From a virus (taxonomy: Duplodnaviria; Heunggongvirae; Uroviricota; Caudoviricetes), in IMG/VR virus record IMGVR_UViG_3300000292_000047: DNA of 48,335 bases. One strand, 5' to 3'. Both the position numbers and the translations under genes were made by a program. Below are positions 3,752 through 48,335 of the stretch, piece by piece. The notes under the pieces were generated by a model that was not told the DNA's origin, did no database searches, and saw only the letters and a program-made list of their open reading frames with translations. Each line of letters begins with the position of its first letter. Positions within the stretch are counted from its first letter, which is position 1.

Positions 3752-4015
3752 TTATCCTGCTGTGCTTTCAACTGATGAGGGGAACAAAATCTTTTCATCA
3801 AACCCTGCATTCATATCATGGACAGCAACACACCAATCCATTGACGAACGATTATCAAGAGCCTCCATGATTTCATCCATGCGGCGCAGGTCATACAGGT
3901 AAATGCTTTTATCGCCAATGGTGTAAAAACCAATTTTTTTCGGTGATGGGCAGCGATCAAGAACGTCCTGTAATTCGTTCAACCATGCCCGTTCTTTTTT
4001 TGTTAAAGTTGCCAT
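3752..4015 (-). CDS. Hypothetical protein (shares MATLTKKE N-terminal motif)
   Basis: 87 aa ORF; start context gccatatcactctcctttga shared with neighbours. Confidence 0.45.
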   Translation of the reverse strand: MATLTKKERAWLNELQDVLDRCPSPKKIGFYTIGDKSIYLYDLRRMDEIMEALDNRSSMDWCVAVHDMNAGFDEKILFPSSVESTAG

Positions 4016-4016
4016 A

Positions 4017-4466
4017 TCACTCTCCTTTGATGCGAATGTTTACAGCCTGACAAGCCTCTTCGAGAACCCAGTCAACAGCGTCTTTCCATGCTCCGGTTTC
4101 GACTGGCGGATTTTCACGCTTAACCTGTTCATAGAAGCGCACTGCTTTAATCAATCCTTCTGGTATCAGTGGCACAGGCGGGGGAGTGAATAACGCCTGA
4201 ATTTCATAGCTCGGCCTGTCGTTGCAATCCTCTTTTGTCGGTACATATTTCCAGTCACCAACCCACGGCTCCCCCTGAGAGTCCGTAACGCCTTTTTTCA
4301 CGTAGCGATATCGCCACGCGACTGGCTCTGCTTCCAACGATGCCAGTGCGATACGAAACACATTGGCAAGCAGACTGCTTGAAGATTGGTTATCGTGCGC
4401 CGGGTCGCTCAGGAAGCCTGTGATGAATGATTTAATCTCCGCACGTTCTTTGGTAATAGTGGTCAT
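4017..4466 (-). CDS. Hypothetical protein, paralogous family member
   Basis: 149 aa; MTTITKERAEI, IALASLEAEPVAW motifs. Confidence 0.5.
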   Translation of the reverse strand: MTTITKERAEIKSFITGFLSDPAHDNQSSSSLLANVFRIALASLEAEPVAWRYRYVKKGVTDSQGEPWVGDWKYVPTKEDCNDRPSYEIQALFTPPPVPLIPEGLIKAVRFYEQVKRENPPVETGAWKDAVDWVLEEACQAVNIRIKGE

Positions 4467-5731: not shown

Positions 5732-6093
5732 TTCAACTCCTCCCGACGACGTTCCTGAAGCTCTAGCATTGCGGCTCGGAAATCCTGCCACCATTCCTCA
5801 TCGGCTACTGGGGTGTTCCGCTCCAGCACCTTGTCCGCATCGGCGATCAGGTTTGCCAGACTCTTGTCTGAAATCTTCGTTACCGGAGTCGTTGGTTGCT
5901 CAACCTGCCCGATAGGTTTTATCGTGCTCAAAAGGAGGCGACGGCGGGAAAGTGGTGCCCCACAACGACGGCCATCTTCCTTGCGATATGTTTCTTTCGG
6001 ACCAACACACCAGGTTGTCGGCGTCTCGCGCAACTTCACTTTTTTCTCACCATCATTGGTAATGATTATTCCGGTATGTGTTTTGATGCTCAT
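5728..6093 (-). CDS. Hypothetical protein
   Basis: 121 aa; ATG 6091-6093; ATGA overlap with upstream gene. Confidence 0.45.
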   Translation of the reverse strand: MSIKTHTGIIITNDGEKKVKLRETPTTWCVGPKETYRKEDGRRCGAPLSRRRLLLSTIKPIGQVEQPTTPVTKISDKSLANLIADADKVLERNTPVADEEWWQDFRAAMLELQERRREELK

Positions 6094-6371
6094 GCCACAG
6101 CCCCTCTCAACGGCTTAACTTTGGCTAATAAGGTGTTAAACAACATGGAGTTAGGATTCATGCCAAATGGCAATTCCGGTTTAGCGGAGTAGTACAGGCA
6201 ACCATTTATTTTCCTGGTTGTTATCTGTCCTTCGGCAACCATGCTTCTCAGTCTGCAACGCATAGAGTTCTGCGACACACCAATGTGCTCCGCGATTACG
6301 TCCACTTTTGAACATGGGTGATCGGTCAGGAAATTAATCACATCTTGGGGGTTAATAATTTTGCGTTTCAT
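6090..6371 (-). CDS. Putative winged-helix DNA-binding protein
   Basis: 93 aa from ATG 6369-6371; HTH-like segment VDVIAEHIGVSQNSMRCRLRSMVAEGQI. Confidence 0.4.
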   Translation of the reverse strand: MKRKIINPQDVINFLTDHPCSKVDVIAEHIGVSQNSMRCRLRSMVAEGQITTRKINGCLYYSAKPELPFGMNPNSMLFNTLLAKVKPLRGAVA

Positions 6372-6416
6372 TGTCGAGGCGTCCTTATACATTTATATAA
6401 ATATATAATTCTATAT

Positions 6417-6448: not shown

Positions 6449-7516
6449 TCAGGCTTTCAATAGCGATTCTTTCAGATATCGGGCATCAGCCAGGGCGTTT
6501 GGCGTAATCTTGCGAACCCATGCATTACGGGTTGGACTCCACTTAAAGGCGCGTGATTTAAGCAGCGAACGAATGTTTGCCTCTGGTTTGCCAGGGAAAT
6601 AAAACAGGATGCGGTTATCCTCTGGATCTATCTCCATAGAAAAGCCGTCGTATTCTTCGCGCTGTGCTCCTGTTACAGACTTGACCGATTCAAGCTCCTT
6701 AATACGGCTCTGTAGTCGTTTGATTTCGGCGTTATTGTTGCTCAGTGCGTATGAAGGGAATCCGATGCGCCCACAGAAATCTCCGGCCAGTAACTCTTTG
6801 GCTTCGCTTTCTGTAAACCTGAGATCGATTAATGCAGAAAGCTGCTGTATTTGGTCTTTTTTGTATTTGCGAATGGCCTTATTTGCGGCCTTCATTTTGA
6901 CGTGTGACTTCATGCAGCCTTGCAGCTTACGAAGCAACTTAAATAGCGCATCAGGATCATCAGACGAAATTCCATTACGACCAACACCTGCGGCTTTGCT
7001 CTCGTAGTGTGATGCTTTACTTTCGCATTCAACAAACGCTTTTCTGAATAACGCATCAGCTTTAGACAAACGGCGGCGATGGCCTTTCGCGCTATAATGG
7101 TCAACTAAAATCGGCTGGCCTAACGGGATCACATCCAACAGGTCATGCGCTCGCTTATGCGCTACCGCACCTTCTTTTCTGGCTTTTTCTGCACGAGCAA
7201 TATATCGGGCAAGACGCGCGTTCTGGCGTTCCTGATAGGTGTTTACGTAATCATCTCCGCGCTGCTGCTGTTCAAGCCATGCTTTGCGCAGATCTTCTGT
7301 TACGTCCACCAGCTCCGCAGGGATACAACCAGTTTGGGCTTCATAAGAGTAACCATCCTCATAGATACGCCCATCGTCTTCAACAAAGAAAAAGGTTTCG
7401 TGCTCATCGCTTTTGACCATACGACCATTAACATGGCGTAATAGGTAGCCAGTATCAGTGCTTAACAGGCTGTTAGGGTTGTTGATCCAGTCAGAAATAA
7501 TTACTTGTTTATTCAT
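6449..7516 (-). CDS. Conserved hypothetical protein driven by leader copy B (possibly DUF3560-like)
   Basis: 355 aa from ATG 7514-7516 (MNKQVIISDW) immediately after leader SD ccggagaaatctg; family assignment from memory only. Confidence 0.55.
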   Translation of the reverse strand: MNKQVIISDWINNPNSLLSTDTGYLLRHVNGRMVKSDEHETFFFVEDDGRIYEDGYSYEAQTGCIPAELVDVTEDLRKAWLEQQQRGDDYVNTYQERQNARLARYIARAEKARKEGAVAHKRAHDLLDVIPLGQPILVDHYSAKGHRRRLSKADALFRKAFVECESKASHYESKAAGVGRNGISSDDPDALFKLLRKLQGCMKSHVKMKAANKAIRKYKKDQIQQLSALIDLRFTESEAKELLAGDFCGRIGFPSYALSNNNAEIKRLQSRIKELESVKSVTGAQREEYDGFSMEIDPEDNRILFYFPGKPEANIRSLLKSRAFKWSPTRNAWVRKITPNALADARYLKESLLKA

Positions 7517-7640
7517 CAGATTTCTCCGGTTTAACCAGGGCGGGTATCGCTCGGTTTCGGGTATAACCATAGGAAATTTTTTCCCACCTGTAAAGCACTT
7601 TTTATATAAATCTATAATTATATATTTATAGATTTTCGAT
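7517..7640. repeat. Copy B of ~105-bp promoter/5'-leader repeat
   Basis: Near-identical to 1-118 and 16999-17108. Confidence 0.85.
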
Positions 7641-10036: not shown

Positions 10037-10054
10037 TTAACGAACTCCAGTTAA

Positions 10055-10172
10055 ACCACGATATGTGGTATTAAAACCACATATCGTGAGTTTTTCAATG
10101 GGCGAAACAAAAAATAACCTTCTATTTGTGGTCCACCTCTCGTCTTACCATGTGAAAACCACTAAATGTGGT
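10055..10172. promoter_or_regulatory. Immunity operator region with three ACCAC-N5-GTGGT-type sites between divergent genes
   Basis: accacgatatgtggt (10055-10069), accacatatcgtgag (10076-10090), accactaaatgtggt (10158-10172). Confidence 0.6.
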
Positions 10173-10209
10173 AATGTATAAATAACCCACCATTCACGAT
10201 TGATGAGAC

Positions 10210-11333: not shown

Positions 11334-11360
11334 CTGAAAGCGGGCTAACGCCCGCTTACA

Positions 11361-11460
11361 TGATTATAGATTTATATAATTATATAAAACGCTTTTCATC
11401 CGCCAAAAAGTTGGTTATGCTTACCTCGTTCTATAAATATAGATTTATAGAATTATATAA
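11361..11460. promoter_or_regulatory. AT-rich repeat block upstream of parA (candidate centromere/operator)
   Basis: ttatagatttatataattatataa and ctataaatatagatttatagaattatataa; same motif as in leader repeats. Confidence 0.55.
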
Positions 11461-11483
11461 CCAAACACATGGAGTCTCGACAA

Positions 11484-12137
11484 ATGACTATCTCTGTAGG
11501 TATTTTCAACGGAAAAGGCGGCGTAACCAAATCAACAATTGCCCGTGCTTTAGCAGTTGCTTATGCAAAGGCCGGCTGGAATGTATGCCTGATCGATATG
11601 GATGTGCTTAACGGAACGGTAACGCGTTGGGTACAACGCAGAATGGCCAACAATATCGAACCTGCAATCGCGGCGCAGCCGTGCGGCACGCCATCACAAG
11701 TCCAGAAAATCATCGAATCAGAAGTATACGACCTGGTTATCGTCGATGGCGGTGCCTACGCATCTGAATCAGTACCGAAGCTCTCTGAATTTCTGGATAT
11801 GGTTATTTTGCCAACCAGATTCTCTACCGATGACCTAGAAACCACCGTTAACACAGCTCACGGCATCGTTAAAAAGGGTGTGCCAATCAAGAAAATTTGC
11901 ATGGTGTTCTCAGGCGCGGCTGAAAACGAAGCCGACTACATTGAAGCCCAAGAGTACCTAGCTAATACGCCATACTTTGTTGTCGATAAGTACATTCCCC
12001 ACAAGCCAGCTCTGAGCAAAGCTCAGGATAAGGGCTTAAGCCTCATTGAATGCTCATACGTTGCGCCACGCAAAAAGGCAGACGACGTTATTCAGGGGAT
12101 TATCAACCAGCTTGAGGCTCTGACTACTGCCGCGTAA
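11484..12137 (+). CDS. parA: ParA/ParF-type partition ATPase (alternative ATG at 11469)
   Basis: Deviant Walker A GKGGVTKST; MinD/ParA fold; GGAG SD before ATG 11484. Confidence 0.8.
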   Translation: MTISVGIFNGKGGVTKSTIARALAVAYAKAGWNVCLIDMDVLNGTVTRWVQRRMANNIEPAIAAQPCGTPSQVQKIIESEVYDLVIVDGGAYASESVPKLSEFLDMVILPTRFSTDDLETTVNTAHGIVKKGVPIKKICMVFSGAAENEADYIEAQEYLANTPYFVVDKYIPHKPALSKAQDKGLSLIECSYVAPRKKADDVIQGIINQLEALTTAA

Positions 12138-12168
12138 TATATAATTATAGTTTTATAGATTTATATAA
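12136..12168. promoter_or_regulatory. AT-rich repeat block between parA and parG-like gene
   Basis: atataattatagttttatagatttatata. Confidence 0.5.
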
Positions 12169-12180
12169 GAGGGGATACAC

Positions 12181-12429
12181 ATGGCCGGACCATCAAAACC
12201 ACCAAAGAAGAACAGCAAAGGCGTACCGCCATCGATCGAACAACCGCAGGTTTTCGACCCGACTGAAACGCCAACCAGAACCAAATCAGGTGGGGCACAA
12301 ATGGCGTTTAACGTCGACCCTGAATTTAAACGCGAGTACAAAACGTTCGCCAGCTCAATGGATATGTCATTGAAAGAAGTGCTGACAAAATCTTTTGAGT
12401 TACTCAAGGCTCAATACAACCAGAAGTAA
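12181..12429 (+). CDS. ParG-like ribbon-helix-helix centromere-binding protein
   Basis: 82 aa immediately after ParA; basic unstructured N-terminus then predicted beta-strand/helix segment; AGAGGGG SD. Confidence 0.55.
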   Translation: MAGPSKPPKKNSKGVPPSIEQPQVFDPTETPTRTKSGGAQMAFNVDPEFKREYKTFASSMDMSLKEVLTKSFELLKAQYNQK

Positions 12430-12650: not shown

Positions 12651-12674
12651 TAAAAAAGGCCCCCGAAGGGGCCT
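12651..12674. terminator. Hairpin terminator, usable on minus strand (bidirectional candidate)
   Basis: aggcccc-cgaa-ggggcct perfect stem; A-run on plus gives U-run on minus. Confidence 0.6.
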
Positions 12675-12679
12675 AATCG

Positions 12680-12802
12680 CTACTTGCTGCTAATGTTTAT
12701 CGTCACATTCAGAGCGTTATCAGTAATCTTCCAACCCTCCCCATGTGGCGTAAACAAAGCCCCAGTAACAACGATAAAAATACACATACAGTATTTTTTC
12801 AT
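12680..12802 (-). CDS. Small hydrophobic peptide (40 aa), candidate type I toxin-like or exported peptide
   Basis: MKKYCMCIFIVVTGALFTPHGEGWKITDNALNVTINISSK; ATG inside track ORF 12680-12862; terminator immediately downstream. Confidence 0.3.
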   Translation of the reverse strand: MKKYCMCIFIVVTGALFTPHGEGWKITDNALNVTINISSK

Positions 12803-13200
12803 TGTATGGCCCTTACAGGCCGTTTCACGGCATCCCCACCGACGAAAACAACGCGAGAGCAAGCACGGCTGCTTGTGCTTGCATGTACGGCAACGGAGAA
12901 TCCTCCCCTAAAGTCGGTGCCCGGGTGCGAATCGGCGGGAAGGTCCACAGGTATTTTACGATTATTTTAAGATTAGTAATAGGAAAGAAATTAAACGAAA
13001 AAACTCGTTTATTTTCACAAAATCAGTAACCTACCCACAATCTGTGAGTTTGCAGGCACAACAAGAATCACAATTTTTTGAAGCATAATAGTGGACTATT
13101 ATTACCTTTTGGGTAAAATTAACTTGCTGCTTGTGCTTGCGTGGTTGTTTATACAACGACGTTATGCTGAAAGGACCGCGAATCCGATCAGCACGAAAGA

Positions 13201-13309: not shown

Positions 13310-13392
13310 CACTTTCCGAGCCGTAGCAAAATCTACGGTCGGGATTGGAACCCCGTAGACACAATGGCGCATACCGCGTTAGCGGTTTTTTT
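13310..13392 (+). ncRNA. Candidate small structured RNA ending at intrinsic terminator, upstream of antirepressor operon
   Basis: TTGACA at 13285-13290; hairpins ccgtag/ctacgg; terminator accgc-gtta-gcggt + T7 (13373-13392); no ORF. Confidence 0.3.
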
Positions 13393-13558
13393 ATGCGTAA
13401 AGCACTGCTACACCCAAATTATGGTGGGGCGTGCGGGGGAGTCGTAAGACTCGCCGGTTCGTCATTGTGTCCGGTAGTTCCAACCCTGCACGTCTCACCA
13501 CCCAATGATTGGAACCTGACGGTGGTGAGTATCCTTAACCTTTAAGGGAATCATCACA

Positions 13559-13750
13559 ATGACAAACCTACCCCATGACTATTACGTCAACCTCGTAAAG
13601 ATCCTTCTCAAGAAAGCCTCATACGCCGATAAATTCCGCCTGGCTGAAATCATCGAGCGCGAAGCTATGCGCATCGCCAGCAACGATAACGCTGTTTCTG
13701 ACGCAAAAATCTCCCTCGTAACCAAAGTTGTTATGGGAGGTGCAAAATGA
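13559..13750 (+). CDS. Small protein translationally coupled to antirepressor
   Basis: 63 aa; stop overlaps ant start (ATGA). Confidence 0.45.
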   Translation: MTNLPHDYYVNLVKILLKKASYADKFRLAEIIEREAMRIASNDNAVSDAKISLVTKVVMGGAK

Positions 13751-14898
13751 AAACGCTTCCGATCGTTAACACCCTACAGCCTATCCTGCATAATCAGATT
13801 CCAGTAATCACAACTGAGCTACTCGCCCGCCTTTATGGAACAGAAGCAATCCGTATACAGCAAAATCACCATGAAAATAAAACTCGGTTCATTGAGGGGA
13901 AGCACTTCTTTAAAGCTGTTGGTGATGAACTCAAAAATTTGCGACTAGTTTTAAACGAGTCACAAAATGAGGTGCAAATTTCCCCCAAAACTCGCTCTCT
14001 CATCCTCTGGACAGAACGCGGGGCTGCACGTCACGCCAAAATGCTTGAAACTAACCAAGCGTGGGATGTGTTCGAACGGCTGGAAGACTGCTATTTCAAC
14101 CAGAACGCGCAAACGGCCGCGACCGTTACCGTCTCGCCAAACAATCCTCGTGAGGTTGTCGATACGCTCAACGCCAAACCGATGTTTTACATTAAGGTGT
14201 GCAACAACGAGCCACTCACAACCTCAGCCGATGTTGCCCAGGCATTCAGCACCACAAACAATTCCATCGTTATGGCCATCGATGCGTTACGCATTCCTCG
14301 TACAGCTGCGGCACGTCATTTCTTTAAAGAGCAACGACCGCTGGAAGGAAGCGACCGCGAAATAACAATCTATCGCATGACAAAAGACGGATTTACCTTG
14401 CTCATGGAAAGTATCGACGGTCCAGGCGTGAAAGATATCAAGCTGGCCTACATTGAAGCCTTTAACGCTATCAGCAGCGTGTTAAAAACACAGTACGAGC
14501 GTGATCTGGCTAAACGACTGTACCAGGAAAAAACGATTATCCGCGCGGCAACAGAGCATAATCGGCTATTAACAGAACCGAAATACAGGAAGGAACTAAT
14601 CAAGGAGTTTGACAAGGCAACAGGGAAAACCAAAGCGGCGCTAAATCTGCCAGCAATGACTCAGGAAAATGTGATATCAGCCTTACTTCTTGATCTGCTC
14701 AGAAACGCCAGAGCACTTATCAGCTTTGACGAAAACCTGAATCCTCAGCTCAAGCTACTACCACCGACAGGCAAAGTAGTCGACCAGGCTGATCACAACA
14801 GCATACTCAGCGTACTGGATGCAAACCTGCCAGCCAGGACACTACAGGATCTGATAAAAACATGTGCTGATAAGCTGGCACAGAAGAGCAGACCATAA
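13747..14898 (+). CDS. Antirepressor-type regulatory protein (ORF6N-like N-terminus + Rha domain)
   Basis: 383 aa; ITIYRMTKDGFTLLMESIDGPGVKDIKLAYIEAFN matches Rha pattern; GGAGG SD. Confidence 0.7.
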   Translation: MKTLPIVNTLQPILHNQIPVITTELLARLYGTEAIRIQQNHHENKTRFIEGKHFFKAVGDELKNLRLVLNESQNEVQISPKTRSLILWTERGAARHAKMLETNQAWDVFERLEDCYFNQNAQTAATVTVSPNNPREVVDTLNAKPMFYIKVCNNEPLTTSADVAQAFSTTNNSIVMAIDALRIPRTAAARHFFKEQRPLEGSDREITIYRMTKDGFTLLMESIDGPGVKDIKLAYIEAFNAISSVLKTQYERDLAKRLYQEKTIIRAATEHNRLLTEPKYRKELIKEFDKATGKTKAALNLPAMTQENVISALLLDLLRNARALISFDENLNPQLKLLPPTGKVVDQADHNSILSVLDANLPARTLQDLIKTCADKLAQKSRP

Positions 14899-16610: not shown

Positions 16611-16991
16611 TTACTTAACGAGGAATAAAAATGGTTTATCGTTCGGCGGTGTAATCGGGGCTGGCTCGCTTTTGCTCATGCGATCAGTGTACCAGGCCAA
16701 CTCCTTGTCAAAGTAAGCCTGATTAAAATAGGCCATGAATGTGGTTTCAAATCCATAACGACCGCTAATACGCAGCATCTGATTGCCGTTCTCTGTTTCC
16801 AGATATACCTGGGCACGTTCCTGATTCTCCTTCAGCCAGGTTAAAGCCTCATCGCACGAGGACAAACGATACTCATCATCGTAGCCGTCATCGATGCGGC
16901 TTGAAGAAGAACGGCAAATCACGCCAACAGAACCAGCCAGGATAGTTTGAATTTTAAGGAAAGCGTTTTTGCGGATTTTAATCATGCTCAT
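16611..16991 (-). CDS. Hypothetical protein driven by leader copy C
   Basis: 126 aa; ATG 16989-16991 directly after leader. Confidence 0.55.
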   Translation of the reverse strand: MSMIKIRKNAFLKIQTILAGSVGVICRSSSSRIDDGYDDEYRLSSCDEALTWLKENQERAQVYLETENGNQMLRISGRYGFETTFMAYFNQAYFDKELAWYTDRMSKSEPAPITPPNDKPFLFLVK

Positions 16992-16998
16992 CGGGTTA

Positions 16999-17108
16999 TC
17001 TCCGGTTTAACCAGGGCGAGTATCGCTCGGTTTCGGGCATAACCTTAGGAAATTTTTTCCCACCTGTAAAGCACTTTTTATATAAATCTATAATTATATA
17101 ATTCTATG
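16999..17108. repeat. Copy C of ~105-bp promoter/5'-leader repeat
   Basis: 3 substitutions relative to copy A; SD-proximal end diverged. Confidence 0.85.
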
Positions 17109-17112
17109 ATCA

Positions 17113-17140
17113 CAAAAAAGCCCCTTTGCAACAGGGGCTT
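17113..17140 (-). terminator. Intrinsic terminator of higBA operon
   Basis: Minus strand: aagcccct-gttgcaaa-ggggctt + T6. Confidence 0.65.
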
Positions 17141-18332: not shown

Positions 18333-18620
18333 TCAAACATCTGTTTTGTTATCAATGAAGATTAACCCTAACCCAGCGAAGTAACACAGCAGCGCCCAGG
18401 CTGCATACGGAATGCTGGATCTGGATGTGGACTCCTTTAACATCTGCCAGTTGCGAACATTGCGACTATCTTTTAAGCCTAGTTTTTTGGCCAACTGCGA
18501 GCCGCTCATTCCGGTCAGGCCAATGACTGCCCGAACTTCTCCACATGTAGGAGATTCCCATTCATCCGCTTTTTTTAAACAAGCCGGATTCAACATTTTT
18601 AAAACAGTATCTTTATCCAT
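18333..18620 (-). CDS. Putative HTH DNA-binding protein
   Basis: ATG 18618-18620 with GGAGA SD; GLTGMSGSQLAKKLGL..RNVRNWQ. Confidence 0.4.
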   Translation of the reverse strand: MDKDTVLKMLNPACLKKADEWESPTCGEVRAVIGLTGMSGSQLAKKLGLKDSRNVRNWQMLKESTSRSSIPYAAWALLCYFAGLGLIFIDNKTDV

Positions 18621-18999
18621 AACCATCTCCATTTATTATATCTACGATGGTAGGAAATCTTTTCCTATGTGGCAATAGAAATTTACTACATTGCGTATAA
18701 GACAAGTTTTCTATGTCTAATAGGAAATGATGTTTCTTACATTTTATCGCGTTCTGATGGCTACTGTGTGCGTATTTATCGACGTTTATTGATAAGGCTC
18801 GCCCCTTCCTCCTGCAAAGCCCGGCCGTAGGCCTTATTTCGGCCTTATATAAATTGATTTTGTATAGTTCGAAACGTGCCGTTTCGAAAAGGATGATCAG
18901 GCTGCTCCATGCCTCCGGCAAGTGCCGGAGGAGGTATATTTGAGCGTAGCGACTCGAACCGGCGCGAGCTTTAGCTCGCTGCAAGGGCGAACATATTCA

Positions 19000-41979: not shown

Positions 41980-42531
41980 TTATTCTTCCTGCTTAATAAA
42001 TCGGGATTCCTGGAGCGCCTGAAGCGCAAAATTAATCTCGTCTTCAATAATGCGCTCGATCTCCCTGGCTGTTTTGCCTTCACAACGGGGAGCTGCTCTT
42101 GGAGCAATACTAAATAAGCGGCTACGCAATTCATTAGCTGCCAGAAATGCATCATCCCTGACCGCATCTTTAGCGATGAGAGAGCCTTCCTTTTCTTCAA
42201 ATTCAAGGCGTTTCAGCTTTGCCTGATAAATTTTTTCTGCGGTCTTAGCCTTGTTGAATTGCACCGCAACACCGGAAGTACCACCAGCTAATCCGGCATC
42301 ATCAGCGGGTAACTCTGGTTGTTCCGAAGATATCCCATGCCCTCTTTTTCCATTTTCAGCAGATACCTCACGACCAACCTGTCGGCTCGCTTCATAAGCC
42401 GCACTGGCTTTATCAAAATCCAGCTTGCCGCTTTTCAGCACTGGAATGCGACCGGAACGACAGAGCTTCGTAACCATTGCCGGAGAAATACCTTTCCGGC
42501 GGGCAAACTCTGACTTACTGACGATGGCCAT
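41980..42531 (-). CDS. Terminase small subunit (HTH)
   Basis: Track start TTG; ATG at 42529-42531; N-terminal HTH SKSEFARRKGISPAMVTKL. Confidence 0.55.
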   Translation of the reverse strand: MAIVSKSEFARRKGISPAMVTKLCRSGRIPVLKSGKLDFDKASAAYEASRQVGREVSAENGKRGHGISSEQPELPADDAGLAGGTSGVAVQFNKAKTAEKIYQAKLKRLEFEEKEGSLIAKDAVRDDAFLAANELRSRLFSIAPRAAPRCEGKTAREIERIIEDEINFALQALQESRFIKQEE

Positions 42532-43121
42532 TACTTGCAACCATTAGCAAGATACTGAACAAATCCCTCATGCGTTTCATGCGCGTCGTGGTACTGACGA
42601 TAAACATCCAGCAACAATGCAATTTCCATATCCGTCGCGGGAATACGTTCTTTATCAATAGCCAGGTACTTAATTTGAACAACAGGGGAAGAATTATCGT
42701 CTTCTTCCTGCGGCTGTTCATCGCTTAACATTTCGTCAAGCTCTGCATCATTAAACCCAAGCAGATCAATATCAAAATCATCATCCATTAACTCTTTGAC
42801 TTCTTCGGCCAGAAGCTGCATATCCCAGCCAGCATTTAAGGCCAGCTTGTTATCTGCAATCCTGTAAGCCTTCTTCTGTTTTTCAGAAAGGTTACTCAAC
42901 CGAATCGCCGGAACTTTATCCATTTCCAGAATTTCGGCTGCTGCAAGCCGACCATGCCCCGCAATCAGTTCATTCTTTTCATCGATCAGCACAGGATTAG
43001 TGAAACCGAACTCACGGATACTGTTCACCAACTGTTCAACTTGCTCATCTGAATGAGTCCGTGAATTTTTGGCATATCTGAGCAGCTTACCGACTGGTAA
43101 ATATTCGATTTTTAGAGTCAT
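42531..43121 (-). CDS. ParB-like nuclease domain protein
   Basis: 196 aa; ParB N-terminal fold motifs (LIAGHGRLAAA); paralog of 45788-46411. Confidence 0.7.
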   Translation of the reverse strand: MTLKIEYLPVGKLLRYAKNSRTHSDEQVEQLVNSIREFGFTNPVLIDEKNELIAGHGRLAAAEILEMDKVPAIRLSNLSEKQKKAYRIADNKLALNAGWDMQLLAEEVKELMDDDFDIDLLGFNDAELDEMLSDEQPQEEDDNSSPVVQIKYLAIDKERIPATDMEIALLLDVYRQYHDAHETHEGFVQYLANGCK

Positions 43122-43678
43122 TTTTTAACCACCATAACACAACAGGTTAAAGAAAACTGTTTAACTTATTGATACTAAAAGAGAAAAATGACGATCTTTT
43201 TACTCATAAAAAATCACACAAACCAGCATAATTATCTGATTTTATTAAGTTTTTATAAGTAAAAAGGATCTTGCGATGGTGTTTTGGTTAAAAGATTGGA
43301 TGTATTTGCATGATTTATAACGATTTTTATCAGAACAACATCACATTGGTTAAAGATCTGCGCGTATCTTGATGATCTAAAAGAAAATTTTCTACTTTCT
43401 TTTTACCAGCACAAATACAGCAAAAAATCACGTTTTCCCGATATTTTTCAATGAGATGAGTAAATTTCTTTTACCGCAACTTTTAACCTAACTTTTTTCA
43501 CGTTTAGCTAGCCGAACATCGGGGTTCGAATGACCCGCATCCAACGCTTTTGGCCAGAAGGACCCAATTCTGCCGGACGATGAAACGATGCTCGTGCTCA
43601 CCCACAGACAGCCAGCGAGCGACGCTACAGAACACAGTGAATACACCCTGCATAACAACACCATCAACCACACGATGA

Positions 43679-44398
43679 TTAACGAGAGAACGTCTTAGAA
43701 AGAATGTCATCAATAGCCTTTGTGACTTCATCAGCAAACGCATCCTCACCAGCACGTAGCGCCACGCCATGCCAATCAAGACGCTGCGAATAGTTAGGTT
43801 GCTGGATAAACGTAAGGATCAACGTAGGACGCCGCCCAACGCGCTGCCAGACGCCTGGTTGAAGCGGGTTACTTGTACCAGGTCGAACAACAAAAAACTC
43901 CGTAGGCTTGCCCTGACGGCGATTTTGATGCGCATCTCGCTGAACTCTTAGGCCAGATAAGACCTGCTGTAATTGCCCCCGCGAAATATTCCCGTATTTG
44001 TCCAGCTTTGCGCCGGGACCAGGAGCAAGCTGCCAGCCGTTAGGCAAATATCCACCAGCCCTTAGCGCCCCTTCTGAGCGTTTGTACTGTCGTTGGCCAC
44101 CTTCGATTTGCGGAGTCAACGTTACAGGGGCTGGCGTTCCTCCCCATTCACGAGCATACACAATGGCTGTAGGATCACTCTTCTTTGCGGCCAAAACGTA
44201 AGTAGAGTTCTGAATCCACGGCGTGGGCCTGTCAAATACCCGATTAATTTCATTCTTAATCGCAGCCTGAGAAGCCTTTGCCGTTCTGGTTGCCGCAAGC
44301 GCCATTGCGAATGGCAATTCACGTTCTTCAAGGCGCTGGAGTTGTCGTTGAATATCCTGAGAAGAAAAATCCATCTTTATCTCAATTCTGTCAGCCAC
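43679..44398 (-). CDS. Hypothetical protein
   Basis: 239 aa; GTG start with AGGAGG SD. Confidence 0.45.
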   Translation of the reverse strand: MADRIEIKMDFSSQDIQRQLQRLEERELPFAMALAATRTAKASQAAIKNEINRVFDRPTPWIQNSTYVLAAKKSDPTAIVYAREWGGTPAPVTLTPQIEGGQRQYKRSEGALRAGGYLPNGWQLAPGPGAKLDKYGNISRGQLQQVLSGLRVQRDAHQNRRQGKPTEFFVVRPGTSNPLQPGVWQRVGRRPTLILTFIQQPNYSQRLDWHGVALRAGEDAFADEVTKAIDDILSKTFSR

Positions 44399-44414
44399 CA
44401 GCGCCTCCTACACA

Positions 44415-45788
44415 CTACTTAATCAACGGCCGGAAAGCCGCCAGCACATCATCAGATCGTCCGATTGTTGAACCACCAGGCAACGGCAACTCAAACTCAA
44501 AACGAACAGCTTTCTCCAGACTCTCCCAGCGAAGAGAATCATCGTTAATAACGTGCAAATACCAGCTCTTACAGTTGAATATTGACCGCTTAATCCTGAA
44601 ACCATGTACACGACACAACTGCTTCACTTCATCATCAGAGTGAAACTTCTGGTAAAACCAGTGCCCCTTCCGGTACAACGCGGTAAAACCGTTATGATCA
44701 ATAAAATAAAGCCGGCTTTTGGAACTCGCCGCTTGTGTTTGCTTCAGGACTGTTTCCAGCTCTCCACGGCTACGACCAGAAAAGAATATTGACCCACCAG
44801 CTTTACACAGGCCTTTCAGAACCGTCAGAACAGACCATTCAGCCTCGACACTATCGACCGAGTTCAAAACGCTATCGCAAATCACGTAGTCGTAACGCCC
44901 TCGCGTTTTTAAGTCGTCCACCAGCGTATCAATCATCCGGTTTGTTGCGGTCCTATCCAGAGTGTTTCCAGCGCCCTTACGGCGGAAAAGCTCGAGATCA
45001 TGCAGGTTATATCCCTTTGCCCTGAGCATTCGCGCGTAGTCTCCCTGCCCCGAACCAAAATCAATTCCTCTTGGCGTCTTGGCAATGATCGGGAGGATCA
45101 ACGACTCATACAGGTTTGATTTCAGGCTGCCACCATTACGCAACCGCATAAGCTGCGCATACGTCTGGATGTATGTTGTTTTCTCCAGATGAGAATACTC
45201 AAATACACCATAAGTTTTATTCAGATAACTTTGGTATTTTTCCTTCTCAACATCAGGGATCACAAACACCGTTAGCGGTGTGCGCGTCATTTTCGCTGCT
45301 AATGCATACTGAGCACAGTGAATAACCTCACCAGACTGAGTAGCAACACAACCACCCCACGGACCATACTTGATAACCAGTTCCGCTATGTTCTTTCGAA
45401 CATATGCCATTTTCGCGCGCATATTGCCTGAGATCTGGCTTGCCGATACCTGAACAAAACCATGCTTATCTTCCAGACCGGACACCCTGCAACGCTCATC
45501 TCCGCTATCAAAATCCGTTCCGTTATGCAGTTGGTTAAACCGTACTTCGTCGTATACCGTCGTTTCACAGGGCAACACATACACCGCAGCACGCGTTATT
45601 CCCAACTTACGTAGCGCCTTCGTCCTTTGGTGTCCCGCCACCAGCAAATCGCCGCGCACTATCAATGGCTTCACAAGCCCCAGCTCCCTGACGCTTTCCG
45701 CCAGCCTCGCAAGATCATCCTCACCGATAAAACGCGGGTTATATTCCGCGCCGCGTAGGTGCGTTATGTCGTAATTCAGGTGAAGCAT
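44415..45788 (-). CDS. ParB-like domain fused to class I SAM-dependent methyltransferase
   Basis: N-terminal ParB-like region (LVAGHQRTKAL); C-terminal GIDFGSGQGDYA motif I; ATG 45786-45788 with GGAGG SD, TGATG coupling to upstream gene. Confidence 0.7.
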   Translation of the reverse strand: MLHLNYDITHLRGAEYNPRFIGEDDLARLAESVRELGLVKPLIVRGDLLVAGHQRTKALRKLGITRAAVYVLPCETTVYDEVRFNQLHNGTDFDSGDERCRVSGLEDKHGFVQVSASQISGNMRAKMAYVRKNIAELVIKYGPWGGCVATQSGEVIHCAQYALAAKMTRTPLTVFVIPDVEKEKYQSYLNKTYGVFEYSHLEKTTYIQTYAQLMRLRNGGSLKSNLYESLILPIIAKTPRGIDFGSGQGDYARMLRAKGYNLHDLELFRRKGAGNTLDRTATNRMIDTLVDDLKTRGRYDYVICDSVLNSVDSVEAEWSVLTVLKGLCKAGGSIFFSGRSRGELETVLKQTQAASSKSRLYFIDHNGFTALYRKGHWFYQKFHSDDEVKQLCRVHGFRIKRSIFNCKSWYLHVINDDSLRWESLEKAVRFEFELPLPGGSTIGRSDDVLAAFRPLIK

Positions 45789-46411
45789 CAGCACACCTCC
45801 CCAGCCAGCAATGCGGATACAAATCCGATATAGCTGCCATTATCATCAACATAACGAGACACCGCGCAGTCAAAACGATCCGCTTCCTCATCCGTTGCCG
45901 GGATTTTATGACCTCCAAATGACAGGTACTGAACTTTTACGCCTGATTTGGCCTCATCCTTCTCAAATGGGATATCCATACCCTCTGTGTCATCGTAGAC
46001 CGCCGCACTCAATAAGTTATCCAGTTCGCGCTGAGTAAAACCAATTGAGTCCAGAGCAAAATCATCGGCCGCAAGATCTGCAAGCTCCGCGCTTAACAAC
46101 TCTTCATCCCAACCAGCATTCAGCGGAATACGGTTGTCGGCCAGACGATATGCCTTCTTCTGATTCTCCGTTAGCCCAGCCAGAACAATGCAGGGAACAT
46201 CATCCATCCCCAACTGAGTGGCCGCAGCAATTCGACCATGACCAGCAATTACAACGTTGTTCTCGTCTATCAGGATCGGATTAGTCCATCCGTACTCCTG
46301 TATGCTGGCAACAATCTGATCTACCTGCTCCACGGAGTGTGTGCGAGCGTTCTTTTCATAACCAATCAACACAGAAAGTGGTAAAGAAACCACATTAAGA
46401 TGTTTTGTCAT
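45788..46411 (-). CDS. ParB-like nuclease domain protein
   Basis: 207 aa; VIAGHGRIAAA; shares C-terminal region with 42531-43121. Confidence 0.7.
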   Translation of the reverse strand: MTKHLNVVSLPLSVLIGYEKNARTHSVEQVDQIVASIQEYGWTNPILIDENNVVIAGHGRIAAATQLGMDDVPCIVLAGLTENQKKAYRLADNRIPLNAGWDEELLSAELADLAADDFALDSIGFTQRELDNLLSAAVYDDTEGMDIPFEKDEAKSGVKVQYLSFGGHKIPATDEEADRFDCAVSRYVDDNGSYIGFVSALLAGEVC

Positions 46412-47816: not shown

Positions 47817-48014
47817 TTAATGCTCGCGTCGTCCGGCGACAACTTCGGATTTGTATTTCAGGTCGCCCAGCAAGAATTGCAGTTTAAGCATCTTTGCCGC
47901 CGTGTAGTTCCCTGATTCCACAACCTCTTTCATGAGGTCATAAACGGCCGCTACATCATCAGCCAGGAACTCTTTGCGTTGCTGCTCAGTCGCACGTTTG
48001 AAGGAAATACGCAT
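47817..48014 (-). CDS. Hypothetical protein
   Basis: 65 aa from ATG 48012-48014; TGATG coupling to upstream gene. Confidence 0.4.
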   Translation of the reverse strand: MRISFKRATEQQRKEFLADDVAAVYDLMKEVVESGNYTAAKMLKLQFLLGDLKYKSEVVAGRREH

Positions 48015-48283
48015 CACTCATCATCTCCTGCCGCACATACAACCTCACAAAAAAAATCAGCAGAATGTTTCTCCTTGAACGAATGACGCTCAAAACCGCA
48101 CTCAATATCAGGCGCAAAAACATCCACCACATACGGTCTTTCAGAATGTTTGTTTTCCCAACGATAAACCGTAGTGACGTTGAAATGTTTTAACGCTTCA
48201 CGGAACTCAACGCTGCCCGTCAGGTTTTTTGAGGTCAGGTATTGCAGGAGGTTTTTTACTACTTCACGGTCTTGTACTTTCAT
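48014..48283 (-). CDS. Hypothetical protein, first gene behind leader copy A/D
   Basis: 89 aa; ATG 48281-48283 directly after ccggagaaatctg. Confidence 0.5.
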   Translation of the reverse strand: MKVQDREVVKNLLQYLTSKNLTGSVEFREALKHFNVTTVYRWENKHSERPYVVDVFAPDIECGFERHSFKEKHSADFFCEVVCAAGDDE

Positions 48284-48335
48284 CAGATTTCTCCGGTTTA
48301 ACCAGGGCGGGTATCGCTCGGTTTCGGGTATAACC
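48282..48335. repeat. Copy D of leader repeat, identical to window positions 1-54
   Basis: 54/54 identity with window start. Confidence 0.9.

Follow-up and report, generated by a model that had tools for sequence, protein, structure and literature searches.

A promoter–leader cassette present in three copies in an Escherichia coli phage-plasmid, with repeat arrays shared with its partition locus

Why should one sequence of ~120 nucleotides (nt) stand, almost unchanged, directly before the start codons of three unrelated genes in a phage genome? The question arose in a 48,335-nt Caudoviricetes sequence (IMG/VR record IMGVR_UViG_3300000292_000047), which we call the window, meaning the whole stretch of DNA analysed. 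An original prediction, made from the letters of the window, had placed a near-identical promoter/5′-leader cassette at three loci, before genes 48014–48283, 6449–7516 and 16611–16991; all three copies were confirmed, lie in minus sense and end at those start codons. Each copy is, by prediction, a self-contained expression cassette, with a sigma-70 promoter, an inferred transcription start, a short 5′ untranslated region, a strong ribosome-binding site (RBS) and a start codon. With slightly better than even confidence, we read it as a portable promoter under two repressors that undergoes concerted evolution and fronts variable cargo. A phage-plasmid has to combine its upkeep as a plasmid with its development as a phage, and except for P1 and N15 the means by which this is achieved are poorly understood. 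The wiring suggested here, with partition-protein sites built into a reused promoter module beside an operator of the anti-CRISPR-associated (Aca) type, would make expression of the variable cargo depend on how much partition protein is present and on genome copy number.

Three copies of one cassette

The copies and their parts are as follows (bp, base pairs; aa, amino acids; SD, Shine–Dalgarno sequence).

1–119, minus: copy 1, 5′ part, crossing the circle junction into 48281–48335
88–119, 75–80, 56–72, 52–57, 19–42 and 9–13, minus: array, −35, inverted repeat, −10, hairpin and SD of copy 1
48281–48335, minus: copy 1, 3′ part; 48282–48335 repeats 1–54, and ATG 48281–48283 belongs to an 89-aa gene, 48014–48283
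7514–7633, minus: copy 2, comprising array, promoter, leader and start codon of the DUF3560 gene 6449–7516
7602–7633, minus: copy 2 array, ATCTATAA ATATATAA TTATAGAT TTATATAA, ending 7 bp upstream of the −35
7589–7594, minus: copy 2 −35, TTTACA
7570–7586, no strand: copy 2 inverted repeat, 17 bp, TGGGA-N7-TCCTA, filling the spacer and overlapping the first two −10 bases
7566–7571, minus: copy 2 −10, TATGGT (TAAGGT in copies 1 and 3), with a 17-bp spacer
7533–7556, minus: copy 2 leader hairpin, AACCG-A-GCG-AUACC-CGC-CC-UGGUU
7514–7527, minus: copy 2 SD and start codon (GGAGA 7523–7527; ATG 7514–7516)
16989–17109, minus: copy 3, upstream of a 126-aa gene, 16611–16991
17078–17109, 17065–17070, 17046–17062, 17042–17047, 17009–17032, 16999–17003 and 16989–16991, minus: array, −35, inverted repeat, −10, hairpin, SD and ATG of copy 3
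17118–17140, minus: terminator-like hairpin and T-run, immediately upstream of copy 3

The copies are pairwise 92–93% identical, and their flanking sequences, coding sequence included, do not align, in line with the original statement that identity far exceeds that of the genes. A 29-nt promoter core occurs exactly three times in the window, against 0.00 expected in shuffled sequences. Two details of the original prediction needed amending. The common end proposed for all copies holds except in copy 3, which ends …ccggagataacccgATG and not …ccggagaaatctgATG (3′ end GAGATAACCCGATG, not GAGAAATCTGATG). The elements at 1–118 and 48282–48335 are real but form one copy: the first and last 54 nt of the window are identical, so that the window represents a linearised circle of ~48.28 kb, and the linearisation splits this copy.

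The copy 1 array overlaps the stop codon of an MT-A70 methyltransferase gene (114–701). Copy 3 directly follows a terminator-like hairpin in both E. coli and Salmonella, and the hairpin at 17118–17140 is predicted to insulate it from the RelE/antitoxin operon. The −10 variant of copy 2, TATGGT, creates an in-frame ATG (7568–7570, minus) that stretches the mechanical open reading frame (ORF) to 6449–7570; RefSeq relatives and SD spacing place the true start of the DUF3560 gene at 7516. The long run downstream of copy 1 (42531–46411, minus) encodes three proteins with ParB/Srx-like N-terminal domains before the terminase, one of them fused to a methyltransferase.

Distribution and genome context

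The window matches 62 plasmid records at 99.4–99.9% identity over the region tested, mostly from E. coli and including a plasmid of strain ATCC 25922; most of the matching records listed are 46–52 kb long. Three Yersinia phage genomes (vB_YpM_39, vB_YpM_41 and vB_YpM_44) also match, with three cassette places in each. The 62 plasmid records hold 184 cassette places, three per record in most of those listed, and the cassette is present in 74 of 5,426 complete E. coli genomes (median 3 copies; 214 of 217 places plasmid-borne). One assembly of ATCC 25922 has six places on a single 94,204-bp record (NZ_CP032086.1), which probably represents two units of the 48-kb plasmid joined head to tail, or else a mis-assembly.

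A repeated sequence with one copy straddling the window ends could suggest an assembly artefact or a miniature mobile element. We give this a negligible probability: the three copies are seen again in over 60 independent complete assemblies, as well as in the phage genomes, which excludes an artefact, and every copy is fused to a start codon in constant orientation. No pair of terminal inverted repeats bounds any copy; each runs from array to ATG.

An annotated relative carries phage genes (P2-like tail, terminase, portal, holins and endolysin) together with plasmid and regulatory genes (RepA, ParA, a RelE/antitoxin pair, a CI-like repressor, Ref and DUF1064). Because virion and lysis genes are combined with RepA, ParA and RelE/antitoxin, we identify the window as an E. 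coli phage-plasmid. Nearly all genes on the cassette side of the genome lie on the minus strand.

As the original prediction had proposed, related genomes were searched for the same cassette, and it was found in Salmonella and in two Serratia plasmids, three copies in each. Our comparisons cover four lineages: the E. coli group (the window, genome L001 and IMG/VR contigs), Salmonella Weltevreden NZ_LN890526.1, Serratia marcescens CP083756.1 (L025) and Serratia sp. NZ_CP074139.1 (L026). Both Serratia elements were recovered through 40–50% identical homologues of the small gene after parA. They share with the window a backbone of cI, parA, a ribbon-helix-helix (RHH) gene, the early operon (Ref, DUF1064), repA, and a 95-aa helix-turn-helix (HTH) gene with its neighbour, at 28–69% identity. 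The gene between cI and parA encodes ~125–130 aa in each, the Serratia version having no detectable homology to that of the window. On this plasmid and early-gene backbone stand different virion modules: a P2-like myovirus in the window, a lambda-like head with a P2-like tail in one Serratia element and a fully lambda-like siphoviral module in the other. The S. marcescens element bears blaTEM-1. Plasmid pSLy3, considered as a family member, was rejected as a 114-kb SSU5-type plasmid. In the literature on phage-plasmids with ParG, on the vB_YpM phages and on the ATCC 25922 phage-plasmid, we found no description of the cassette or of regulation in this family, and the paper on HQ103 contained nothing of relevance.

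Promoter anatomy across four lineages

Each compared genome has three array-bearing cassettes, and all align in one order: four 8-bp repeats, ~7 bp, the −35, a 17-bp spacer, the −10, ~10 variable bases, a hairpin, and AAACCGGAGA(U)AANCCGAUG. The gap between array and −35 reads AAAGTGC or AAAGGTC. In E. coli the promoter is of the sigma-70 type, TTTACA-17-TAWGGT; over the lineages the −35 varies among TTTACA, TTGCAG, TTGATG and TTGTGC, and the −10 among TAAGGT, TATGGT, TAATAT and TAGTAT. The original prediction of a promoter, 5′ leader, SD and ATG is thereby supported, with −35, −10, 17-bp spacing and GGAG kept in Escherichia, Salmonella and both Serratia lineages. The GGAG RBS is conserved as neighbouring positions vary. 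The hexamers and their spacing stay while the discriminator and initial transcribed bases change, as would be expected if the sigma-70 promoter works. The array lies 7–8 bp from the −35 in nine of 12 cassette copies across the four lineages, a count that excludes copies Ssp_1–3.

RNAalifold predicts a single hairpin from twelve distinct leaders, AACC(G)-A-GC(G)-AUACC-(C)GC-CC-(U)GGUU in E. coli and GGCC-G-(G)GC-AUACC-GC(C)-AA-GGCC in Serratia. The two outer pairs are A-U in the first and G-C in the second, both partners having changed; four pairs never vary, and the remaining variation lies in the loop. A first alignment had suggested four compensatory pairs, which were not upheld; MAFFT with RNAalifold supports two. 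We regard the hairpin as probable, though not certain. It is predicted to begin within a few nt of the mRNA 5′ end, a position at which stabilising stem-loops are known, and our best guess is that it stabilises the mRNA.

Concerted evolution before variable cargo

Paralogous cassettes are 92–93% identical within E. coli and 95–98% within Salmonella; between the two, any pair, orthologous or not, is 84–89% identical, and each genome has substitutions common to all three of its copies. In E. coli-type strains, the −10 variants TAAGGT and TATGGT and the pre-ATG variants AAATCTG and ATAACCCG fall on different copies in different strains. Because these polymorphisms form a mosaic over copies and strains, we infer repeated gene conversion. 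Homogenisation in Serratia is seen between copies 1 and 2 (90–92%), and copy 3 is nearer its orthologue (82%) than its paralogues (76–81%). Of the two explanations first offered for the high identity, a shared regulatory input and spread by recombination, both are borne out: paralogues are closer than orthologues and polymorphisms are mosaic, yet the architecture is old.

The proteins behind the cassettes are 45–68% identical between E. coli and Salmonella. No Serratia homologue of the three was found, and the Serratia cassettes front other small genes. Being better conserved than the genes it drives, the cassette appears to be a conserved control module for variable cargo. None of the genes behind the cassettes has an informative match in Pfam, PHROG, NCBIfam or PDB, and none resembles a known anti-CRISPR (Acr) protein. 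The cassette thus offers a clear natural example of a regulatory element that gene conversion keeps uniform even as its downstream genes are replaced.

Arrays shared with the partition locus

The AT-rich distal part of the cassette had been noted to match repeats flanking parA/parG, and this proved correct. The window has eight arrays, each of exactly 32 bp (4 × TTATAKAW), with 27 pattern matches against 0.00 expected in shuffles. They lie at 88–119, 1223–1254, 6385–6416, 7602–7633, 11356–11387, 11429–11460, 12137–12168 and 17078–17109. Three are in cassettes, two bracket the parA promoter and three lie elsewhere; none is in the virion half. Salmonella also has eight, at equivalent positions. 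The features of the par locus and the remaining arrays are listed below.

11356–11460, plus: parA control region, with an array (11356–11387), −35 TTTTCA (11393–11398), −10 TATGCT (11416–11421) and a second array (11429–11460)
11484–12137, plus: ParA, a small Walker-type protein of 217 aa without an N-terminal DNA-binding domain
12137–12168, plus: array between the parA stop codon and the RBS of the RHH gene
12181–12429, plus: 82-aa ParG/omega-like protein with a disordered basic N-terminal tail followed by strand-helix-helix; candidate array binder
6385–6416, minus: array abutting the RBS of a MarR-like 93-aa gene, 6090–6371, the gene after DUF3560
1223–1254, no strand: array between lysis genes and tRNA-Met (1009–1084)

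The parA promoter is designed like the cassette, with an array 5 bp upstream of TTTTCA-17-TATGCT, and has a second array just downstream; the Serratia parA promoter is built in the same way. ParA matches Pfam families CbiA (1.5e-12), ParA (3e-9) and MipZ (4.8e-9), all from residue 5–7. The ‘type 2’ junction at 6385–6416, AAGGACGCCTCGACAATG, resembles that between the second parA array and its RBS. This second reused junction (6371–6416, minus; 11429–11486, plus; 38068–38107 in L025; 27681–27729 in L026) consists of an array and then an RBS, GGA(G/C)NCTCGACAA(A)TG, and fronts parA and the gene after DUF3560, and a Lar-like restriction-alleviation gene in both Serratia plasmids. The tRNA-Met gene (CAT; 1009–1084, minus) lies ~140 nt downstream, in minus sense, of array 1223–1254, and no clear promoter was found between them.

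Repeat units differ between lineages. TTATAKAW outnumbers TTAAAKAW in the window (47 versus 13), in Salmonella (43 versus 7) and in plasmid NZ_CP037908.1 (L002/L027; 11 versus 2), and the Serratia plasmids reverse the preference (TTAAAKAW 26 and 29, TTATAKAW 2 and 2). Within every genome, the unit of the cassette arrays is that of the par-locus arrays. Since the unit varies together with the par locus, we assign the arrays to the par module. Two known classes of partition system offer points of comparison. As in type Ib partition, the ParA is small (217 aa) and a small RHH-like protein with a flexible tail follows directly downstream; as in omega-type systems, par-type arrays also occur in promoter regions of non-par genes.

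Plasmid NZ_CP037908.1, a 28.5-kb conjugative cfr plasmid, narrows the search for an array binder. TTATAKAW arrays occur upstream of its parA and in the gap that separates parA from the small gene. When 22 proteins from the non-structural half of the window were compared, homologues on this plasmid were limited to ParA (45%), the RHH protein (41%) and RelE/antitoxin (96–97%), the sole exceptions being weak HTH-only (cI) and RepA matches. Because it shares little else with the window and type Ib ParA proteins have no site-specific DNA-binding domain, the 82-aa protein is the only shared candidate. At 4001–4048 this plasmid also holds a cassette remnant, 97.9% identical and cut by IS26 after GGGAAAAAT; together with the 96–97% identical RelE/antitoxin, this points to recent exchange between phage-plasmid and conjugative plasmid. 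A 94-aa gene beside the remnant was considered as an Aca-like protein and rejected.

A library-wide HMMER search returned 58 homologues of the 82-aa protein at E ≤ 0.001, about 50 of them 62–140 aa long. Their tails are basic and proline-rich (MA..KPP.KKN.KG.PP) and precede a strand-helix-helix pattern; among 50 homologues, Pfam matches were to RHH_10 (18), Antitox_RHH (11) and ParG (1). Against TP228 ParG (1p94) the family profile gives an in-register alignment, with an E value of only 0.49; ParG ranks third among four weak PDB matches and is the sole partition protein among them. The AlphaFold model shows an unstructured N-terminal half and helices at 47–59 and 62–79, and no ParB domain was found in the protein. 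The putative beta-strand reads AQM(A/S)FNVD or AQLNLYVD in three TTATA lineages and K(A/P)MNFN(V/M)D in two TTAAA lineages, a correlation with the repeat unit that is suggestive only. ParG dimers bind 4-bp boxes with 4-bp AT-rich spacers, at an 8-bp period and in direct and inverted orientation, and coat both the centromere and the parFG operator, repressing parFG (PMC3130281). For omega of pSM19035 the bound sites are heptad arrays, which overlap three promoter regions and also serve as centromeres (PMC9499535). By analogy, the 82-aa protein would coat the four-unit arrays.

Might the arrays then be dispersed centromere sites alone, without a role in transcription, any control acting through the inverted repeat? 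Repeats of this kind do serve RHH partition proteins as centromeres (PMC3130281, PMC9499535), centromere function in N15 is spread over four separate IR sites (PMC7205306), and three arrays (1223–1254, 6385–6416 and 12137–12168) have no following promoter, the last two abutting RBSs. Yet TP228 and pSM19035 use the same sites for both roles, and the distance from array to −35 is fixed at 7–8 bp in those nine of 12 copies, and is 5 bp at parA, despite 60–70% sequence divergence. Such a fixed distance is otherwise hard to explain and suggests interaction with RNA polymerase, and we therefore think a purely centromeric role rather unlikely.

An inverted repeat and an Aca-like protein

The spacer of every cassette contains a 17-bp inverted repeat with arms TAGGA/TCCTA, the right arm supplying the first two −10 bases. 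It reads TGGGAAAAAATTTCCTA in the E. coli cassettes, TAGGAAAATATTTCCTA in Salmonella and TAGGAAAAAAAGTCCTA in Serratia. Allowing one mismatch, TAGGA-N7-TCCTA occurs exactly four times in the window, in L003 and in L025, against 0.7–1.0 expected by chance; L026 has four perfect copies and one stray one-mismatch match elsewhere. The fourth inverted repeat always precedes a conserved 95-aa gene adjoining repA (window, L003, L025 and L026).

18647–18675, minus: fourth promoter, without array, TTGCCA-17-TACCAT; perfect repeat TAGGAAAAGATTTCCTA at 18651–18667, in the same register
18333–18620, minus: 95-aa HTH protein of Aca type; candidate inverted-repeat binder

Compared with PDB, the 95-aa profile matches the C-terminal HTH domain of AcrIF24 (E 2.2e-7 to 4e-7) and Aca3 (0.0084). 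The protein model has a pLDDT (predicted local distance difference test) of 85, and its top Foldseek matches are AcrIF24 (7dtr; template-modelling score 0.67, 32% identity) and Aca1–DNA (7c0g, with palindromic DNA); Foldseek probability is 1.00 for both, yet E values are just 0.02–0.09. The HTH domain of AcrIF24 represses its own promoter by binding a short inverted repeat there (PMC9638941). By association, which is not proof, we infer that the 95-aa protein binds the inverted repeat, autoregulates and represses the three cassettes. The repeat sits inside the 17-bp spacer and overlaps the −10, and thus occupies a repressor position.

CI, named in the original prediction as a candidate input, is unlikely to act here. 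Palindromes of the ACCAC/GTGGT type (10057–10088 and 10120–10175) are probably its operators, and they are absent from the cassette. They lie at 10050–10180, in the interval separating the CI-like gene from the divergent early operon (for example CACGATATGTGGTATTAAAACCACATATCGTG).

An ordinary strong promoter, duplicated by recombination, might look much like the cassette, its AT-rich array serving as an UP element or H-NS target and its inverted repeat and hairpin being incidental. AT-rich stretches in front of a −35 commonly function as UP elements, and copies homogenised within a genome say little by their identity alone about selection. Such a promoter would leave unexplained the strict 8-bp periodicity, the lineage-specific unit that matches each genome's own par-locus arrays, the inverted repeat arms kept in four lineages with one further recurrence before a conserved HTH gene, and a cassette that between E. 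coli and Salmonella is better conserved than the proteins it fronts. We consider this explanation improbable.

A proposed mechanism and points against it

We propose that dimers of the 82-aa RHH partner of ParA would bind the four 8-bp repeats cooperatively and that a dimer of the 95-aa Aca-like protein would bind the 17-bp inverted repeat. If both repress, the promoters would be held down in the established plasmid-prophage and fire on cell entry or whenever the repressors fall behind copy number. Besides this, the arrays may double as dispersed centromere sites. Gene conversion keeps the copies alike, and the cargo genes differ by lineage.

Several observations weigh against this proposal. 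TAAGGT is a poor −10, and a consensus promoter scan flagged copy 2 alone. Being very AT-rich, the arrays could partly serve as UP elements or as targets of H-NS. The inverted repeat and the HTH protein are paired through guilt by association, and the E. coli cassette repeats carry one arm mismatch (TGGGA), the perfect site occurring only at the promoter of the HTH gene. The covariation of the leader hairpin reflects one split, Escherichia and Salmonella versus Serratia, and its single-sequence fold z-scores are unremarkable (−0.5 to −2.0), so that the hairpin rests on comparative data and not on energy. Finally, omega activates at partial or low occupancy and represses at full occupancy (PMC4627068), so that regulation by the arrays may be of either sign.

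Activation at partial occupancy (PMC4627068) also bears on a different kind of promoter, an activator-dependent middle or late phage promoter whose arrays (about −45 to −75) or inverted repeat would recruit an activator during lytic growth, as with Ogr/Delta at the late promoters of P2/P4. The position of the array would suit a class I activator, copy 1 stands at the head of a long leftward run in the direction of the terminase and virion genes, and copy 2 stands before genes that lead to the lysis cassette. Weighed against these points, the arrays bracket parA and are found on a conjugative plasmid without phage genes, the Serratia cassettes do not precede virion operons, and an inverted repeat in the spacer overlapping the −10 occupies a repressor position. 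An activator-dependent promoter therefore seems to us highly improbable.

Our preferred reading, a portable promoter under two repressors, can be extended to an entry switch, which we put forward tentatively and think more doubtful than probable. In a naive cell, before either repressor had built up, entry would bring a burst of lineage-variable cargo expression, the two repressors would later shut it off, and the lytic rise in copy number would titrate them and reopen the promoters, with the arrays acting as dispersed centromeres. If so, a global circuit like that of KorA and KorB would have arisen independently, with an RHH partition protein and a regulator of Aca type as its parts, and a portable, gene-converting promoter module would stand on a backbone joined to at least three different virion modules. 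The proteins made in the entry burst would be candidates for anti-defence or establishment functions, and the genes behind the cassette form a shortlist of such candidates. The cassette is small, sharply defined and carried by the plasmid of E. coli ATCC 25922, a standard laboratory strain, and is thus directly testable.

Comparison with known systems

By mechanism, the closest systems are the pSM19035 omega regulon and TP228 ParG; by logic, the closest is KorA/KorB of RK2, which is no relative. Omega of pSM19035 (Inc18) is likewise a small RHH partner of a small ParA, with short non-palindromic repeat arrays in several promoters, that of par included; its arrays double as centromeres (PMC9499535), and array binding by the 82-aa protein is predicted on the same pattern. 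Omega is also, like the protein proposed here, a partition protein acting as a plasmid-wide regulator. Its arrays hold 7–10 heptads, compared with four 8-bp repeats here, and the 82-aa protein has no detectable sequence similarity to it. The present element differs further in being a phage-plasmid of a Gram-negative host and in having extra promoters in the form of near-identical cassettes with a second operator and a common leader.

TP228 ParF/ParG, with parH and OF, shares the type Ib organisation, an RHH protein with a flexible tail and an 8-bp periodicity, and ParG is both centromere binder and repressor of its own promoter (PMC3130281). The match to ParG has an E value of 0.49, its box is ACTC and not TATAG/TAAAG, and its sites are clustered upstream of parFG and not dispersed.

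In RK2/RP4, a partition DNA-binding protein (KorB) and a small HTH dimer (KorA) have operators at many promoters, a logic similar to that proposed here. KorB sites are found, in some cases, immediately upstream of the −35, and those of KorA overlap the −10. The two proteins jointly keep plasmid genes down in steady state (PMC2680271, PMC11790492). KorB is a ParB-type CTP-dependent clamp and not an RHH protein, KorA is not Aca-like, and RK2 has no repeated promoter cassette; the likeness is a functional analogy only and not membership.

In Aca1, Aca2 and AcrIF24, a small HTH dimer recognises an inverted repeat that lies in, or overlaps, the −35/−10 region of a strong promoter, that of its own gene included (PMC9638941, PMC9410906). 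The 95-aa protein is a relative of this group in sequence and fold, and, as there, genes behind the promoter vary between relatives. Here, unlike in Aca systems, three of the four promoters are remote from the HTH gene, no downstream gene is Acr-like and partition arrays are added. The phage-plasmid N15 has several separate partition-protein sites (PMC7205306), as the putative dispersed sites here would be; it differs in using type Ia SopAB and single palindromes, without a shared promoter and leader cassette.

RNAs near the partition genes

At the Rfam gathering threshold, no match fell inside the cassettes; the four hits in the window were ryfA, C4, isrK and a tRNA. Trans-antisense control by C4, isrK or ryfA was dropped as an explanation, their complementarity to the leader being no better than in shuffles. 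Beside the par genes, the region formed by 12652–12948 (minus), 13320–13392 (plus), 13417–13505 (plus) and 13559–14898 (plus) contains Rfam ryfA, isrK, a C4 antisense RNA region, a small ORF and a 383-aa Rha/Ant-like ORF. From its sequence, this region looks like an antirepressor control region of the P1/P7 immI type, additional to the CI-like repressor.

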